This document shows, in pieces, positions 18,441-57,317 of a stretch of 64,000 nt of DNA. Below the pieces are notes generated by a model. That model worked only from the letters and a program-made list of their open reading frames with translations. It was not told the DNA's origin and searched no databases. The position numbers and the translations under genes are program-made. Positions within the stretch are counted from its first letter, which is position 1. Every line of letters begins with the position of its first letter. The stretch is from Octopus vulgaris (Eukaryota): contig OX597821.1 in the NCBI GenBank assembly GCA_951406725.2, positions 79,918,001-79,982,000 of the forward strand, written 5' to 3'.

Positions 18441-19704
18441 TAGGGGTTGGACAAAATAATAGAAACACCTAGCGTCATAGCATCACAAGTTTCAAATATC
18501 TATGAAACCGTCAAAATCTTGTTTATTTTTATGGTTTTTGATTTATTGTTAGTGTTGCTTAATGTTTTGCTAAAATTGCTGTTTCTTTTCAGACATCAGC
18601 AGAAAAAGGTAATTAAAATTCACTAAAATGACAGATCTATCGGACTTTCAAAGAGGTCAAATTGTTCGTACTCGTATGGTAGGCACTAGCATAACGAGAG
18701 CAGCCGAAATGTTTGGTGTGTCAAGAAGTACTGTCTCAAAAGTTATGACAGCATTTGAGGCAGAGGAAGAAACCTCCTCGTCGAAACAAAAATCCAAAAG
18801 AAAAGCAAAACTTTCAGATAGGGAGCGTCGGACTCTTATGCGAATTGTTAGAAAGGATCACAAAAGTGCGGCTCCCAAAATTACTGCAGAGCTTAATGAC
18901 CACCTCGAGAACCCAATTTCCACAAAAAAACTGTTCGACAGGAGATGCACAAAGCCGGATTCACGGGAGGGCTGCAATCAGAAAATCACTACTTTCAAAA
19001 ACAAACGTTGCACAGCGTTTAGAGTGGAGTAAAATCCTACGGAATTGGTCCCCAGATCAATGGAAGAATGTTATTTTCTCGGACGAGTCATCTTTTACCT
19101 TGTTTCCGACTACCGGCCGAGTATATGTGTGGAGATAGCCAAAAGAAGCATTTGACTCTGACTGCATTCTTCCAACAGTTAAACATGGAGGAGGATCTGT
19201 GATGATCTGGGGAGCTATGTCTTGGAAATCCGCCCGCCCATTGGTTTCCCTTCATGGCAGAATTAATAGTCAAAACTATTCAAGCATTTTATCTGATCAA
19301 ATTCATCCTATGGTTGCCGAACTGTTTCAGGGGGGAAACGCAATATTTCAGGATGATAATGCACCAATTCACACAGCTAAAATTATTACTGAATGGCACG
19401 AAAAGTAAAGTTGAACTTTTTATCTGGCCACTACAGTCCCCAGATCTTAATATTATTGAACATTTATGGTGAATTTTAGAAAAAAAAGTAAGGAGTCGAT
19501 ATCCTCCACCATCATCACTACAAGAACTGCGGATAGTTTTAGTTGAAGAATGGACAAAAATTCTTTTGGAAACAATTCAAACTTTGTACAAGTCCATACC
19601 TCGTAGAATTCAAGCTGTAGTTACTGCAAAAGGCGGTCCTACCCCATATTAAAATAAATTTGTTTGAAATTTCAAGGTGTTTCCATTATTTTGTCCAACC
19701 CCTG
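18441..19704 (+). mobile_element. Full-length Tc1-family DNA transposon (inactive)
   Basis: 30-bp TIRs (c/t)aggggttggacaaaataat(g/a)gaaacacct at 18441-18470 and 19675-19704 (28/30 match), flanked by TA, 1264 bp. Confidence 0.95.
18628..19652 (+). pseudogene. Tc1 DD34E transposase, frameshifted
   Basis: HTH region MTDLSDFQRGQIV...; catalytic motifs VIFSDES, FQDDNAPIH, SPDLNIIEHLW; ends GGPTPY*. Broken by frameshifts and stops. Confidence 0.92.
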
Positions 19705-37095: not shown

Positions 37096-37150
<55 letters not shown>

Positions 37151-37429
37151 TTAATAAGGGTGAGAGAATTAGATACTAATTTAATAGTATATTTATTCCA
37201 CACCAAGTGGCCTAGTGCTACGAGAAACCTGGATTATTATAATATTTTATAACATATTATAATATTTTCACAAAATAAATATAAGAGAGTGTTCACTATA
37301 TTGATCACTCTAGCACCAGTTAATCCAAGAGGTTTCAACCACGAAAAATACATGTTTCCCATGAAAGCCGGTACGACTGTTAGCTCACACGGACAGGGCA
37401 AATAAAAAATAACAAAAATACAGATTATT

Positions 37430-37505
37430 TTGGGACAATTGTTTCGCTATTAATGAATTAAATGTAATATTACTTACAGTAATCCATTTGTAGCTCTTCA
37501 GCCAA
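37430..37505 (-). ncRNA. Type I hammerhead ribozyme, copy 1
   Basis: Reverse complement of 39210-39285. Confidence 0.88.
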
Positions 37506-37963
37506 GACTATCTGGATGAAATCCACTCAATCACACGCCAGATTTTACCATAACGATAAATACGCGTGCGGTTCAATTGATTACATCGGACGTTATAATT
37601 CAAATGCCCCAACCAACAGCGCGCCAAATTCTCACGGAAAACAAATACAGCATTTAGAAATAAATGCAGCATAATTATAATTAATTAATAAGGGTGAGAG
37701 AATTAGATACTAATTTAATAGTATATTTATTCCACACCAAGTGGCCTAGTGCTACGAGAAACCTGGATTATTATAATATTTTATAACATATTATAATATT
37801 TTCACAAAATAAATATAAGAGAGTGTTCACTATATTGATCACTCTAGCACCAGTTAATCCAAGAGGTTTCAACCACGAAAAATACATGTTTCCCATGAAA
37901 GCCGGTACGACTGTTAGCTCACACGGACAGGGCAAATAAAAAATAACAAAATTACAGATTATT

Positions 37964-38039
37964 TTGGGACAATTGTTTCGCTATTAATGAATTAAATGTA
38001 ATATTACTTACAGTAATCCATTTGTAGCTCTTCAGCCAA
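37964..38039 (-). ncRNA. Type I hammerhead ribozyme, copy 2
   Basis: Copy 1 shifted by +534. Confidence 0.88.
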
Positions 38040-38497
38040 GACTATCTGGATGAAATCCACTCAATCACACGCCAGATTTTACCATAACGATAAATACGCG
38101 TGCGGTTCAATTGATTACATCGGACGTTATAATTCAAATGCCCCAACCAACAGCGCGCCAAATTCTCACGGAAAACAAATACAGCATTTAGAAATAAATG
38201 CAGCATAATTATAATTAATTAATAAGGGTGAGAGAATTAGATACTAATTTAATAGTATATTTATTCCACACCAAGTGGCCTAGTGCTACGAGAAACCTGG
38301 ATTATTATAATATTTTATAACATATTATAATATTTTCACAAAATAAATATAAGAGAGTGTTCACTATATTGATCACTCTAGCACCAGTTAATCCAAGAGG
38401 TTTCAACCACGAAAAATACATGTTTCCCATGAAAGCCGGTACGACTGTTAGCTCACACGGACAGGGCAAATAAAAAATAACAAAAATACAGATTATT

Positions 38498-38573
38498 TTG
38501 GGACAATTGTTTCGCTATTAATGAATTAAATGTAATATTACTTACAGTAATCCATTTGTAGCTCTTCAGCCAA
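38498..38573 (-). ncRNA. Type I hammerhead ribozyme, copy 3
   Basis: Copy 1 shifted by +1068. Confidence 0.88.
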
Positions 38574-39209
38574 GACTATCTGGATGAAATCCACTCAATC
38601 ACACGCCAGATTTTACCATAACGATAAATACGCGTGCGGTTCAATTGATTACATCGGACGTTATAATTCAAATGCCCCAACCAACAGCGCGCCAAATTCT
38701 CACGGAAAACAAATACAGCATTTAGAAATAAATGCAGCATAATTATAATTAATTAATCTGTATTTTTGTTATTTTTTATTTGCCCTGTCCGTGTGAGCTA
38801 ACAGTCGTACCGGCTTTCATGGGAAACATGTATTTTTCGTGGTTGAAACCTCTTGGATTAACTGGTGCTAGAGTGATCAATATAGTGAACACTCTCTTAT
38901 ATTTATTTTGTGAAAATATTATAATATGTTATAAAATATTATAATAATCCAGGTTTCTCGTAGCACTAGGCCACTTGGTGTGGAATAAATATACTATTAA
39001 ATTAGTATCTAATTCTCTCACCCTTATTAATTAATTATAATTATGCTGCATTTATTTCTAAATGCTGTATTTGTTTTCCGTGAGAATTTGGCGCGCTGTT
39101 GGTTGGGGCATTTGAATTATAACGTCCGATGTAATCAATTGAACCGCACGCGTATTTATCGTTATGGTAAAATCTGGCGTGTGATTGAGTGGATTTCATC
39201 CAGATAGTC

Positions 39210-39285
39210 TTGGCTGAAGAGCTACAAATGGATTACTGTAAGTAATATTACATTTAATTCATTAATAGCGAAACAATTGTCCCAA
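39210..39285 (+). ncRNA. Type I hammerhead ribozyme, copy 4
   Basis: ttgg-CTGAAGA-gcta[caaatggatt...aattcattaa]tagc-GAAA-caattg-TC-ccaa: intact core, GUC triplet, predicted cleavage after 39281. Confidence 0.9.
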
Positions 39286-39743
39286 AATAATCTGTATTTT
39301 TGTTATTTTTTATTTGCCCTGTCCGTGTGAGCTAACAGTCGTACCGGCTTTCATGGGAAACATGTATTTTTCGTGGTTGAAACCTCTTGGATTAACTGGT
39401 GCTAGAGTGATCAATATAGTGAACACTCTCTTATATTTATTTTGTGAAAATATTATAATATGTTATAAAATATTATAATAATCCAGGTTTCTCGTAGCAC
39501 TAGGCCACTTGGTGTGGAATAAATATACTATTAAATTAGTATCTAATTCTCTCACCCTTATTAATTAATTATAATTATGCTGCATTTATTTCTAAATGCT
39601 GTATTTGTTTTCCGTGAGAATTTGGCGCGCTGTTGGTTGGGGCATTTGAATTATAACGTCCGATGTAATCAATTGAACCGCACGCGTATTTATCGTTATG
39701 GTAAAATCTGGCGTGTGATTGAGTGGATTTCATCCAGATAGTC

Positions 39744-39819
39744 TTGGCTGAAGAGCTACAAATGGATTACTGTAAGTAATATTACATTTAATTCATTAAT
39801 AGCGAAACAATTGTCCCAA
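39744..39819 (+). ncRNA. Type I hammerhead ribozyme, copy 5
   Basis: Identical to copy 4, shifted by +534. Confidence 0.9.
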
Positions 39820-40277
39820 AATAATCTGTATTTTTGTTATTTTTTATTTGCCCTGTCCGTGTGAGCTAACAGTCGTACCGGCTTTCATGGGAAACATGTA
39901 TTTTTCGTGGTTGAAACCTCTTGGATTAACTGGTGCTAGAGTGATCAATATAGTGAACACTCTCTTATATTTATTTTGTGAAAATATTATAATATGTTAT
40001 AAAATATTATAATAATCCAGGTTTCTCGTAGCACTAGGCCACTTGGTGTGGAATAAATATACTATTAAATTAGTATCTAATTCTCTCACCCTTATTAATT
40101 AATTATAATTATGCTGCATTTATTTCTAAATGCTGTATTTGTTTTCCGTGAGAATTTGGCGCGCTGTTGGTTGGGGCATTTGAATTATAACGTCCGATGT
40201 AATCAATTGAACCGCACGCGTATTTATCGTTATGGTAAAATCTGGCGTGTGATTGAGTGGATTTCATCCAGATAGTC

Positions 40278-40353
40278 TTGGCTGAAGAGCTACAAATGGA
40301 TTACTGTAAGTAATATTACATTTAATTCATTAATAGCGAAACAATTGTCCCAA
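40278..40353 (+). ncRNA. Type I hammerhead ribozyme, copy 6
   Basis: Identical to copy 4, shifted by +1068. Confidence 0.9.
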
Positions 40354-40505
40354 AATAATCTGTATTTTTGTTATTTTTTATTTGCCCTGTCCGTGTGAGC
40401 TAACAGTCGTACCGGCTTTCATGGGAAACATGTATTTTTCGTGGTTGAAACCTCTTGGATTAACTGGTGCTAGAGTGATCAATATAGTGAACACTCTCTT
40501 ATATT

Positions 40506-40729
<224 letters not shown>

Positions 40730-40739
40730 GTATATATAA

Positions 40740-42017
40740 GGACGATATGCAAATGTAGTGCGCAGTAACCCAACAAATGGCCAGCTTCACCCAGATGTGA
40801 GAAGGGCAGCAGCTGAACAGCAATCTTTTTTGTGCATGGCACAAAAAATTGTTCAGCAGCTGACCTGGCTACAAGCATAAAGCTGGAACTACTACCACAT
40901 AAGGCCACCACCAACAGATGCAGGATGGCCACCACAGACACCAACACACACACCACAAAAATATTTCTACTGAACGTAGGAGGGCTACTGCGCGGCAACT
41001 TTAAAAGGAAAATCTCATTCCTGAGAGACCTTGTGACATGCAATCAAGCCGTATGCATGGCACTCACAGAAACGCATCTCGGACCCGATATAGGGGATGC
41101 AGAAATACACATGCCGCAATATGCAGTCATACGCTCAGATAGAAAAGGGAGGAGCCATGGTGGAGTTGCAATGTACATCCGAGATGACTTCACGCCCCAG
41201 GTCCTGTTGTCATATTCAAACTCAGTGTGTGAAACTCAAATTGTACACATAAGACAACTGAATATCGTCATATGCACTACATATCGCCCACCAGATGCCC
41301 CAAATCACTCAGGCATGTTTGAAGACTGCCTAACAAAAATAGGAGAAGTCCTCACCAACCTTAAACAACACAGCAGTGTATTCTTCATGGGTGACTTTAA
41401 CTTCCCCAATGTGGAATGGCCTGGCGGGCAGATGCACTCAGGGATGACACACCATCAGCCGACACCATCAGCTGCTCCATCTCACAAATGCCTCTTTCAT
41501 GGAGCAAATAGTTCTGCAACCAACAAGGGCAGATAATATACTGGATCTCTGCTTCACAAACAATATGGATATTATCCATAATGTTAAAGTGATGTCGACA
41601 ATGATCTCGGATCACAACATAATAGAGCTGTCTATGTATGGACCAAAAACCCCGTAGACACACAGCCTATACGAAGCATCCACCATCTCTCCAACTTAAA
41701 ATTTCATAAAGCAAACTGGAAGTTGATTGAGAAAGAGATCCTCAAACAGGATTGGCCTGAATGTCTCACCACTCCGGACATAAACATGAAACACAAACGT
41801 TTCATGTCCATAATACAAGCCATATGTAACAAATATGTCCCAGTGTGCAGGGCCAGCACACACAAAAACAAAAGCAGGATCCCTAGAGAAAGGAAGATTC
41901 TTATGAGACGACGGACAAGGATTGCGAACCGCCTGAGCAAGCACACCAAAAGTGGTGAGAAGTCTCGGCTCGAGAGAATGCTAATGGAAATTGAAAAAAG
42001 TCTGCATCAGTCCCATG
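40740..42017 (+). pseudogene. CR1-group LINE: ORF2 AP-endonuclease domain and linker (frameshifted), probable ATG at 40925
   Basis: APE motifs LLNVGGL, ALTETHL, RSDR...GGVAMYI, YRPPD, MGDFNFP, ILDLCFTN and SDHNII; then FHKANW linker. Confidence 0.9.
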
Positions 42018-42052
42018 AAAATTTTCTAGTTACAGTCATTCATCAGGTGGTT

Positions 42053-42099
<47 letters not shown>

Positions 42100-42325: not shown

Positions 42326-42351
42326 GTTTATATTATTTAAAAATATAATAT

Positions 42352-42669
42352 TTATCTTGGCGAGGTTTAAACCTCGCCAAGATAACTATTTAAATCACCT
42401 GATGAATGACTGTAACTAGAAAATTTAAAGAAATTAACAGCCATGAAACGATCGTAGTGATATATTAATTATATTTTTTAAATAATTTTGTTATATTTTT
42501 AAATAATATAAATTAAATAATCTTATGTATTGGCTTAAGTTTTTCATTGTATGATTTGCCTAATAGTGGTTTTGTCTCTAATTTAATATAATATAATATT
42601 TTACTATAAAATTGGATTCAATCCTAAATCTGATTTTGCCCTGTAAGTTTGGATTTATTCCCTAATATT

Positions 42670-44222: not shown

Positions 44223-44408
44223 CGGGCACTCAAATGAAAGCAGCACCTAAAAGTCGGATAAATACCCCGGGTACTGACGTACATCCAGTAAAATGTTCAG
44301 TATTTAATGGCTAGGTGCTGGTCCAAAGGGCACGTTGTGTTGATCACCCGGAGTTTGGTATACTCTAGGATGTCCGATGGTTCGTGAATCCCTTTGTATT
44401 ATAAGCAT

Positions 44409-44706
44409 CATTACAGCTATTTCTGACGCATTTTTAATAGATGGCTGCGTACATTACGTCTTTGCAAAAAAACCGTATTCATCAGATAGTATATATAATT
44501 TCAAAACAATTGAAGAACACTCCGAAGCTGACCATGACTGGGCCTCAGTCATGGTCAGCCTCGGGTGGCTGATAGGCTGATAGGCGTTCATGGAGTGTTC
44601 TTTCATTGTTTTAATATTACATGTACCATCTGATGAATACGTTTTTTTTACTATGACGTAATGTATTCGTTCAATAAATAAAAACGCGTAAGAAACAACA
44701 GTCATG
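44409..44706. mobile_element. Old fold-back element with a degenerate hammerhead in each arm
   Basis: Central hairpin at 44527-44559. Plus arm: cat-CTGATGA-atacg...cgtaa-GAAA-caacag-TC-atg (44627-44706). Minus arm: tat-CTGATGA-atacg...cgtca-GAAA-tagctg-TA-atg (44409-44488). Confidence 0.6.
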
Positions 44707-45117
44707 AACTGACATTTATCCATCGATTCTTATTTATTCATTTGTACACACATACATACACATGCATACATACATACATACATACATACATACATACACA
44801 TGCATACATACATACATACATACATGCATACATACATACACATGCATACATACATACATACATACACATGCATACATACATACATACATACATACCTACA
44901 TACATACATACATACATACATACATACATACATACATACATACGTGTGTGTGTATACATATATGTATGTATATAAATATAGGGAGAGAAAGAGAGAGAAG
45001 TTATGAAATAGAGCAATAATTAACATTGAGAAGTGGATCGTTGGTGTTTAAAAGTCATTATATAAATGAATTTGGAACATTTACAGCTGGTTCTGTTTAT
45101 CAAATTGGAGATGCATC

Positions 45118-45353: not shown

Positions 45354-45361
<8 letters not shown>

Positions 45362-46304
45362 ATGTTACATTACTCGGTAGTCAAGATAAAACTCTGAGTT
45401 TCAGATGCCGAAGTGGAAATCCACAACACCATCTCTTCGGTTATCTGGCTATTTGAAAACGTTATGAAAAAATACCGTTAAAAAAGAAGGGAAATTACTC
45501 TGTTATAACTCTTCTTTGCCTGCGTACTTATACATCGCTCGCATTTTTCGTCATAAAAATTATATAAAAATACATAAAAATATATAAAAATATATAAAAA
45601 TATATAAAATCTTCTTGGGACATAACACAGAAAGCATGTTCTATCCGTTTTCTTTAGGGGACCAAAAACGTAACAGAAATTTAGTCACATGTGGGCATGA
45701 TCCGAAAAGCTCTGTCCTTGTATTTAGACATGTGGTAGGGTCTAAGCTGCTTTTCCAGATAAGCCATCTCTCCATGTCGCATAGACCCTACCACATGTAT
45801 AGACCCTACCACATGCATAGACCCTACCGTATAGACCCTACCACATGTACCACAGCTTAGACCCTACCACATGTCTAAATACAAGGACAGAGCTTTTCGG
45901 ATCATGCCCACATGTGACTAAATTTCTGTTACGTTTTTGGTCCCCTAAAGAAAACGGATAGAACATGCTTTCTGTGTTATGTCCCAAGAAGATTTTATAT
46001 ATTTTTATATATTTTTATGTATTTTTATATAATTTTTATGACGAAAAATGCGAGCGATGTATAAGTACGCAGGCAAAGCAGAGTTATAACAGAGTAATTT
46101 CCCTTCTTTTTTCACGGTATTTTTTCATAACGTTTTCAAATAGCCAGATAACCGAAGAGATGGTGTTGTGGATTTCCACTTCGGCATCTGAAACTCAGAG
46201 TTTTATCTTGACTACCGAGTAATGTAACATATTGTATAGATAAATTTCCTCTATTTACACAATATTGAGGTCTCTTTCTTTCTTTTGTTATCTTACCGCT
46301 TTAT

Positions 46305-49412: not shown

Positions 49413-49418
<6 letters not shown>

Positions 49419-50011
49419 ATTGAAGAAATGGAGTTGAACGAAGATTGAACAGAAATCGTTTTATTTCATTCTACACGTGTTTCGAAAGGCACAATTTACC
49501 AAATTCCGATTGAATAATGAGACCATATTGTGTCTTTCTCTTCAGGAAGAAATAGGAAATCCGTTGGAAAAAACAAAAACAGAACAGAGGCGGAGCAAAA
49601 CAAATCGAACTAGGCTCCTAAGAACCCATGGCCAAACCATGGGCTCTTAGGAGCCTAGTTCGATTTGTTTTGCTCCGCCTCTGTTCTGTTTTTGTTTTTT
49701 CCAACGGATTTCCTATTTCTTCCTGAAGAGAAAGACACAATATGGTCTCATTATTCAATCGGAATTTGGTAAATTGTGCCTTTCGAAACACGTGTAGAAT
49801 GAAATAAAACGATTTCTGTTCAATCTTCGTTCAACTCCATTTCTTCAATTCACTAATAATATTAAAATTCAATTATCCGCACCAACGCACGGTTGCAACA
49901 CCATATGGTTGTACCTCCAACCGTGCTGTCTTCTGCTGTGATTTTTGCTACCAAGGTATCGGTTAAACTTTTGATTAATCTGCAACAAGATTATTCATCT
50001 TTCTATTTCAC

Positions 50012-54774: not shown

Positions 54775-55014
54775 TATTGGGTTAATTATTGCGGCATGTT
54801 TTCAACAAATTTTATTCAACAAAAATAATAACATGTAACAATCTTTGAATGATTATTCCGGAGCATATTCACCATCTACTTCAATTACTGCTTCCTATAT
54901 GCTTGGCAGACCGTCAGACCGTAATTTAAAGATGTTTTTATTAAATATTGTTATTGTTTTTGTTGAATGAAATTTGTTGAAAAAAAGCTGCAATAATTAT
55001 GCACCAACCCAATA
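54775..55014. mobile_element. Mariner-type MITE
   Basis: TA-ttgggtt(ggtgca)taattattgc...ttcaacaaattt / aaatttgttgaa...gcaataattatgcaccaacccaa-TA; about 60-bp imperfect TIRs resembling mariner termini. Confidence 0.75.
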
Positions 55015-55467
55015 CAGATATTGTTATATTTCGGGACGGTCATTTTTCTTATTTTTGCCAAATAAACACACGCACTATATATTTGTTCTTCACTTGTTTA
55101 TTACGGTTCTCTTTTTCTTTTTCATCTTAACTCATGTCCATTGTCCGGAAATCTTTCGTCACACATGTGTGACCTCTTCAGCGACACTTTTCGTTTTCGT
55201 GCGCGCTCTTGCTCCACTTACTCCGTTCTGTTCTTCTAAGATGTGTAGATACTTATCTTAGAAAATGTGTGACGAAATTTTTCTGGACAATGGACATGAG
55301 TTAAAATAAAAAAAAAAGAACAGGAATAAACGAGTGAAGAACAAATATATAGTGCGTGTGTTTATTTGGCACCCCCCCCCTACCAAAAATGACTATCCCA
55401 AAATACAACAATATCTGTTTCAACACACGATTTCTCATCAGGGATCTAGTAACACAAATTGATAAAC

Positions 55468-56840: not shown

Positions 56841-56919
56841 ATATATGTATGTATGTATAAATATATATATATAAGCAACAATAAATCTCCGAAAGAGATG
56901 TAAACAGTAACCGCTCGAC

Positions 56920-57257
56920 AACGTAAAGTATACTAGCCATCTCAATATGGCTAACCACTAAGGGTGGGTGTTACTGTCGCTTTTAGCCCCAGGAGATCAT
57001 CGTCTTTATGTGCCCTTATGATATTCGCAAATTACCGGTGATTACCGTACGTTGACGAGAGGCAAGAACCTCGAAACTATAGTCCGTGCGTATCACTTAG
57101 GTTTACGAGAGGGGATGACCTCCCTTTGCGAATATCATAAGAGCACAGAAAGTGTGTCTAAAGCCAGCTGGAGACGTTGATCTCCTGGTGCTAAAAGCTT
57201 CAGTAACACCCACCCTTAGTGGTTAGCCATATTGAGATGGCTAGTATACTTTACGTT
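56920..57257. mobile_element. Fold-back element with a hammerhead in its central loop, between (TA)n runs
   Basis: Outer arms aacgtaaagtatactagccatctcaatatggctaaccactaagggtgggtgttactg and its reverse complement; inner arms gtgcccttatgatattcgcaaa / tttgcgaatatcataagagcac. Confidence 0.85.
57046..57090 (+). ncRNA. Minimal type I hammerhead (C3U variant)
   Basis: cgtacg-TTGACGA-gagg[caagaa]cctc-GAAA-ctatag-TC-cgtgcg; stem I extends through gtgat/atcac. Confidence 0.8.
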
Positions 57258-57317
57258 ATATATATATATTTATACATACATGTGTACATACATACATACA
57301 TACATACATACATACAT

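Follow-up and report, generated by a model that had tools for sequence, protein, structure and literature searches.

A hairpin-shaped repeat with a single hammerhead motif in Octopus vulgaris: a probable Penelope-type fold-back insertion

Introduction

What kind of element places a single hammerhead motif at the tip of a long hairpin, and how did it come to lie in the genome of Octopus vulgaris? The locus in question is part of a window of 64,000 nucleotides (the whole stretch of DNA analysed here), which is microsatellite-rich animal DNA, about 20% of it masked by TRF. A preliminary description had treated the locus as an architecture of a different kind, whose nested arms would fold as a rod-like RNA of about 340 nt with an exposed ribozyme, reminiscent of viroid-like or retrozyme monomers. 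The reading favoured here, to which we give about three chances in four, is that the element is a Penelope-type fold-back insertion, a by-product of insertion by an EN+ Penelope-like element (PLE) that consists of two head-to-head pieces of one 3' end.

Architecture and Target Site

The insert occupies 56873-57257, is hairpin-shaped and measures 385 bases, which exceeds the extent first given for it; the 47-bp extension at its left end and its (TA)n target had both been overlooked (Table 1). Self-alignment showed that the nested arms, put at about 85 and 22 bp in the preliminary description, are real and measure 86 bp with four mismatches (outer) and 26 bp with two (inner). Between the two parts of the right arm lie 21 unpaired nucleotides that have no counterpart in the left arm, and alignment showed that the right arm likewise lacks the bases of the left-hand extension. 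The outer 57 bp of the outer arms are perfect, and all six arm mismatches fall in the inner half of the arms, an arrangement with a chance of about 0.01; conversion between the arms may have produced it. As for the composition of these mismatches, none of the six would form a G-U pair on the ribozyme strand and one of the six would do so on the other strand. A blastn search of the 64-kb window found no second copy of the element.

Table 1. Coordinates of the element, its target site and other features of the window
Feature	Positions	Strand	Description and basis
Left copy of likely target-site duplication	56861-56872		12 bp, (AT)6; flank comparison
Right copy of likely target-site duplication	57258-57269		(AT)6; flank comparison
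One-sided extension, PLE-type tail	56873-56919	-	Small hairpin at 56885-56899 by fold; alignment, family contigs
ATG-started open frame	56872-56940	-	23 codons, 7 in arm and 16 in tail, to element end
Left outer arm	56920-57005	-	Inverted copy of the family's 3' part; self-alignment
Left inner arm	57006-57031	-	Follows a 21-nt gap not found in other copies; alignment and public contigs
Type I hammerhead, dimer type	57034-57102	+	Extended stem I, U3 core, 4-bp stem II, palindromic mini stem III
Degenerate direct copy of core and stem II	57098-57124	+	Without GAAA; 19/25 identical to 57048-57072
Right arm	57125-57257	+	Inner part 57125-57150, unpaired 57151-57171, outer part 57172-57257; ends without tail
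Hammerhead fold-back, unrelated	37146-40521		534-bp units, three per strand, head to head, between (TA)n runs
Hammerhead fold-back, unrelated	42347-42461		44-bp palindrome, then one hammerhead motif at 42394-42461
Hammerhead fold-back, unrelated	49415-49853		98% palindrome beside (TA)n
Decayed fold-back candidates	44408-44707 and 55014-55418		Hammerhead-core-like motifs
LINE endonuclease remnant	40817-41533		Pfam
Tc1-like transposase remnant	18613-19469		Pfam

The element sits in (TA)n, with alternating AT runs of 13 nt adjoining both of its ends, and beyond these runs the flanks are reverse-complementary for 12 more bases. Such complementarity is seen at 7 of the 110 intact AT runs in the window, as opposed to only 96 of 11,990 cross pairs, and because it is commoner at intact runs, the two flanks were likely one microsatellite that was split by the insertion. 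The target duplication is likely up to 12 bp, its length being ambiguous inside the microsatellite.

The Hammerhead Motif and its Predicted Fold

A pattern search confirmed one compact type I hammerhead with all three helices at 57046-57090, enclosed by the inverted arms, with the extended stem I that had been described. Specifically, stem I (57046-51/57085-90) can be extended to about 57034/57102, the core reads TTGACGA (57052-58) with U at core position 3, and stem II (57059-72) is followed by GAAA (57073-76) and by stem III (57076-83); cleavage is predicted after C57084. Matches to the strict pattern arose by chance at 0.025 per shuffle (40 shuffles of 51,011 unmasked bases). A scan against Rfam reported no hammerhead family, either at the gathering threshold or at E values up to 10, and the Rfam matches near the element were rejected as microsatellite artefacts. 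As stated in the preliminary description, the ribozyme is not duplicated in the arms, there being one complete motif at the locus. A degenerate core does lie 50 nt downstream; its identity to the first copy was reached by none of 300 shuffles, and a variant at 57104 that is common in the family turns its core into a perfect match of the first. The small hairpin noticed earlier at 57111-57124 is indeed predicted, although it lies at 57109-57122, inside this degenerate copy.

When 56875-57300 was folded, as the preliminary description had suggested, the predicted structure had an energy of -219.2 kcal/mol (z -19.5; none of 100 shuffles equally stable). This stability is unremarkable because it is expected for any long inverted repeat, and the minus strand folds too (-216.8 kcal/mol, versus -214.6 kcal/mol for the plus strand). 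The plus strand is predicted to form a rod with the ribozyme at its tip, so that part of the earlier picture stands.

A very stable rod with a hammerhead at the tip is what would be expected of a DNA copy of a rod-like circular RNA about 340 nt long, be it viroid-like or a retrozyme monomer, in which the ribozyme is exposed. Family sequence does occur in a public run (X11) that is guessed to be RNA but may be DNA; none of the runs that contain the sequence is recorded as RNA. The details of the locus speak otherwise, and we regard this reading as extremely unlikely. A single hammerhead is unable to excise a unit-length RNA or release a monomer circle, and the locus has one complete motif and no head-to-tail unit from which a monomer could be cut. 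Nor do the arms resemble an imperfect rod kept by G-U pairs and covariation, given the lack of G-U pairs among the mismatches on the ribozyme strand and the perfect outer 57 bp. Further, no circular ("go back") joint was seen among the 15 of 21 family joints listed, and the layout appears private to the locus (see below). The link to retrozymes was nevertheless loosely right, in that animal retrozymes are reported as PLE derivatives; what lacks support is the reading as a viroid-like RNA or retrozyme monomer.

As for activity, the hammerhead monomer is predicted to misfold, its core pairing with the cleavage triplet at a probability of 0.97-0.98, whereas the cofold predicted for two copies has an 8-bp stem III and is more stable than two monomers by 3.8 kcal/mol. 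By this modelling the hammerhead would need a second copy to fold, so that cleavage by a U3 motif on its own would be weak or absent. It is also plausible that the C3U change lowers activity, as the preliminary description had proposed. The C3-G8 pair belongs to the hammerhead core, and natural variants described in PMC3088659 and PMC4209133 covary to U3-A8; unlike the variants described in the latter source, U3 here faces G8. A literature search found no report of the rate of a U3-G8 core.

Family Copies in Public Contigs

Part of the stretch occurs in 20 of the 24 public runs listed (10 studies, four organism labels), none of which contained half of its words. Four runs were examined at 80% likeness, namely X1 and X11 (organism A), X3 (organism B) and X4 (organism C), and the family was present in each, with 3902, 2615, 1241 and 138 aligned contigs in X1, X3, X4 and X11, respectively. 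The element is one copy of a high-copy repeat family found across three organism labels, contig depth not being equal to copy number. The details given here come from 40 of 60 variant rows, 15 of 21 joints, 24 of 467 loose ends and 31 of 7942 pieces. In these four runs no contig spanned a whole copy, and exact-pattern scans gave no matches in metagenome contigs, prokaryote genomes or viral contigs, where animal repeats are not expected.

The preliminary description had asked whether the arms are a fixed feature of the family. The nested layout was covered in only one of the four runs, at single-copy depth, and in other copies the arms join at other places. For example, the bin at 57012-57025 had depths of 33.5, 0, 0 and 0 over the four runs, and loose ends behind 57005 in X1 and X11 go on with the 21 bases that are missing from the left arm here. 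The nested-arm layout thus looks private to this locus. All 15 of the joints listed (of 21) lie at different positions, each in one contig per run, and three of them are common to two runs; the short side reached at least 30 letters in only one, and shorter joints are less reliable.

The contigs also bear on the tail. Positions 56886-56913 have deep family coverage, and one X11 contig (record 10) runs through the 3' half of the ribozyme, the arm and the extension, all in one direction, so the 47-bp extension is, to judge from these alignments, family sequence. A shorter variant of the extension follows 57254 in 16, 19 and 6 contigs, and X11 contigs also depart from the family sequence at 57255 and 57258, where the right arm stops.

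Regarding the two arms, the left-arm base is the one found in most of the family (53-100% of depth) at 57142, 57177, 57189 and 57200, and the right-arm bases at these sites are apparently rare or private to this right arm. Within the ribozyme, the two central bases of stem III co-vary (0.72/0.73, 0.57/0.57, 0.79/0.79 and 1.0/1.0 of depth), keeping the palindrome, and this linked change suggests selection on dimer pairing. At the same time, in X1 and X4 about 70% of the depth shows a change at C11.1 (57072), and for this reason many family copies look decayed. The 40 of 60 variant rows listed have no entry for core position 3 (57052).

Long inverted repeats, an AT target and high copy number would also fit a DNA transposon of the MITE type, bounded by long terminal inverted repeats and inserted at TA, in which the hammerhead would be carried by chance. 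This reading we consider very unlikely: the ends are unequal by 47 bp and the inner junctions vary, so that neither equal terminal repeats nor a fixed layout was found; the likely duplication is about 12 bp rather than 2; and the palindrome of the ribozyme shows compensating change.

A recurrent feature is a set of loose ends before 57034 (eight contigs in X3 and six in X4) that, compared by eye, resemble an inverted copy of about 57100-57130 (agreement 0.75 and 0.63). It suggests that in most copies the left arm contains a counterpart of the small hairpin, and that the turning point of copying often lies immediately upstream of the ribozyme. A fall in depth from 57082-95 toward 57040-53 was considered as a sign of 5' truncation and set aside, since clustered variants at 57066-72 together with contig clipping explain it equally.

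The same loose ends, which by eye look like the inverted arm with the subfamily variants of this copy, could reflect an inherited hairpin master, that is, a non-autonomous arm-ribozyme-arm unit that is transcribed over its full length and whose RNA is copied into DNA by PLE proteins, starting at the inner site, with a left arm that is inherited and not remade at each insertion. Minority variants at 57130 and 57135 are common to both arms, as such a master would predict, and it would also yield a tail on the left and none on the right. Against it, all of the joints listed (15 of 21) differ, no fixed differences between left and right arms are visible (the alleles of this copy at 57177 and 57189 reach at most 6% of depth), and a favoured stopping point beside the ribozyme explains the recurrence of the loose ends equally well. 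We therefore hold a master of this type to be unlikely; were its existence shown, it would represent a previously undescribed form of non-autonomous PLE. The more specific proposal that the subfamily spreads as a pre-formed hairpin RNA, MITE-shaped and PLE-mobilised, with the hammerhead at its tip and the extended stem I fixing the pivot, is a little more doubtful still. If true, such a subfamily would parallel the tandem retrozymes in fold-back form and would supply long double-stranded RNA from sites throughout the genome.

Comparison with Penelope-Like Elements and Retrozymes

The structure of the locus agrees best with that of PLE insertions, which, as described by Craig et al. 2021 (PMC8557442), often include an inverted truncated copy and, on one of the two ends, a tail of 30-40 bp, and favour (TA)n sites. 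In Adineta, Pen2a has inverted pLTRs, a 31-bp tail and a 9-bp duplication (Arkhipova et al. 2013, PMC3846280), and inverted pLTRs and 3' extensions are treated in PMC8969392 as routine features of curation. The element studied here is like an EN+ PLE unit in each of these respects: it has an inverted, 5'-truncated copy in head-to-head orientation (the unit order being that of X11 record 10), a tail on one end only, which at 47 bp is slightly longer than the 30-40 bp quoted, and an AT-rich (TA)n target with a likely short duplication. Its family also has variable truncations and junctions, among 15 of 21 joints listed and mostly with fewer than 30 letters on the short side, and a type I hammerhead with a short palindromic helix III near the 3' end, as judged by pattern and predicted fold. 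What had been called a "different architecture" is better taken for the usual layout of a PLE insertion, one arm of which ends before it reaches the ribozyme.

The element also differs from an EN+ PLE unit in several ways. Apart from the longer tail, it has U3 with G8 in the core and the degenerate second core downstream, no ORF is present in this copy, and no linked autonomous element was found. None of the 96 frames scanned contained a PLE domain and no RT or GIY-YIG sequence was linked; PLE membership is what we infer from structure. Short frames found no homologue in searches on 33-48 residues, which are weak, and neither did the 23-codon ATG frame, for which a negative result means little at such a length. 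That frame is possibly the start of a PLE ORF, and its course into the tail is like that of Pen2a_Av, where the repeat holds the first 12 ORF codons, or 22 with the tail (PMC3846280); the corresponding figures here are 7 and 23. In addition, a plus-strand frame at 57034-57177 was considered for a coding role and rejected: its stops persist in the family majority, a hand count found no third-position bias, and it has no homologue.

The hammerhead itself may be compared with the minimal type I hammerheads of metazoan PLEs, which Cervera and De la Pena 2014 (PMC4209133) describe as having a short palindromic helix III and being predicted to act as dimers, and which that paper reports mostly as single motifs in truncated copies. 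The present motif is like them in its short palindromic helix III and predicted dimer action, and is unlike them in its helices II (4 bp) and I (6 bp plus extension), which are nearer the canonical animal form. Likewise, the element shares with animal non-LTR retrozymes, as reported in PMC7229834, its non-coding nature, type I hammerhead, length of a few hundred bases and probable PLE origin. In those elements the units follow one another head to tail, each has its own ribozyme, and circular RNA is released (Cervera and De la Pena 2020, PMC7229834; Li et al. 2026, bioRxiv 10.64898/2026.07.22.740005), unlike in the inverted pair with a single ribozyme seen here.

A literature search found no paper on this repeat family, and four short motifs of the element were not found in the supplement of PMC8557442. 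Annotation of Octopus vulgaris in PMC13282606 reports 31 recently active PLE families, and the repeat library of that study may already hold this one.

Other Hammerhead Fold-Backs in the Window

The window contains other hammerhead fold-backs that are unrelated to this element in sequence (Table 1), and because they share its layout, a shared insertion process is indicated. The array at 37146-40521 fits the non-LTR retrozyme class better than the element at 56873-57257 does. Its units are nearly identical, with 0-1 differences between the neighbours tested, and each has a type I hammerhead with a long stem II and a palindromic stem III. The array is a candidate young tandem retrozyme or amplified pLTR, and the best candidate in the window for a circular RNA. 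Minimal hammerhead motifs are present in both arms of the palindrome at 49415-49853, at 49720-49799 (plus strand) and 49469-49548 (minus strand), and 42390-42426 recurs in inverted form within a LINE remnant, at 42019-42055. Finally, 45358-46234 has nested inverted repeats around short tandem repeats, the outer pair being 195 bp long and 99% alike and the inner one about 190 bp long; no hammerhead was found in it, and it is possibly a TIR element.

A Proposed Route of Insertion

The Penelope-type fold-back insertion can be sketched as a single event carried out by a PLE reverse transcriptase and GIY-YIG endonuclease. The enzyme would place a nick in each strand of the (TA)n run, the two lying about 12 bases from each other, and two cDNAs would be primed on family RNA. 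The left arm would be the cDNA begun at an outer site, with the tail, and the right arm the cDNA begun at an inner site, without the tail and running just past the ribozyme; a head-to-head joint near 57032 would then unite the two. The 21-nt gap and the six mismatches likely arose during copying or later, and the hammerhead would be the pseudo-LTR ribozyme of the family.

A plain cDNA fold-back cannot account for the element, because the tail is present on one arm and the ribozyme lies on the other. The position of the ribozyme on the tail-less arm thus favours two priming events over a simple fold-back, in agreement with in vitro PLE data. Specifically, Frangieh et al. 2024 (PMC11167929) report that the PLE protein of the anole nicks AT-rich DNA on both strands and extends each of them, that it starts at two internal RNA sites bounding the tail, and that the ribozyme is not needed for insertion in vitro.

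Conclusions

Hairpins of this kind resemble MITEs or viroid-like RNAs, yet they are most likely scars of PLE insertion, and their relevance is mostly to annotation. With its thousands of distinct pieces, the family would suit a survey of the points, relative to the ribozyme, at which PLE copying ends.
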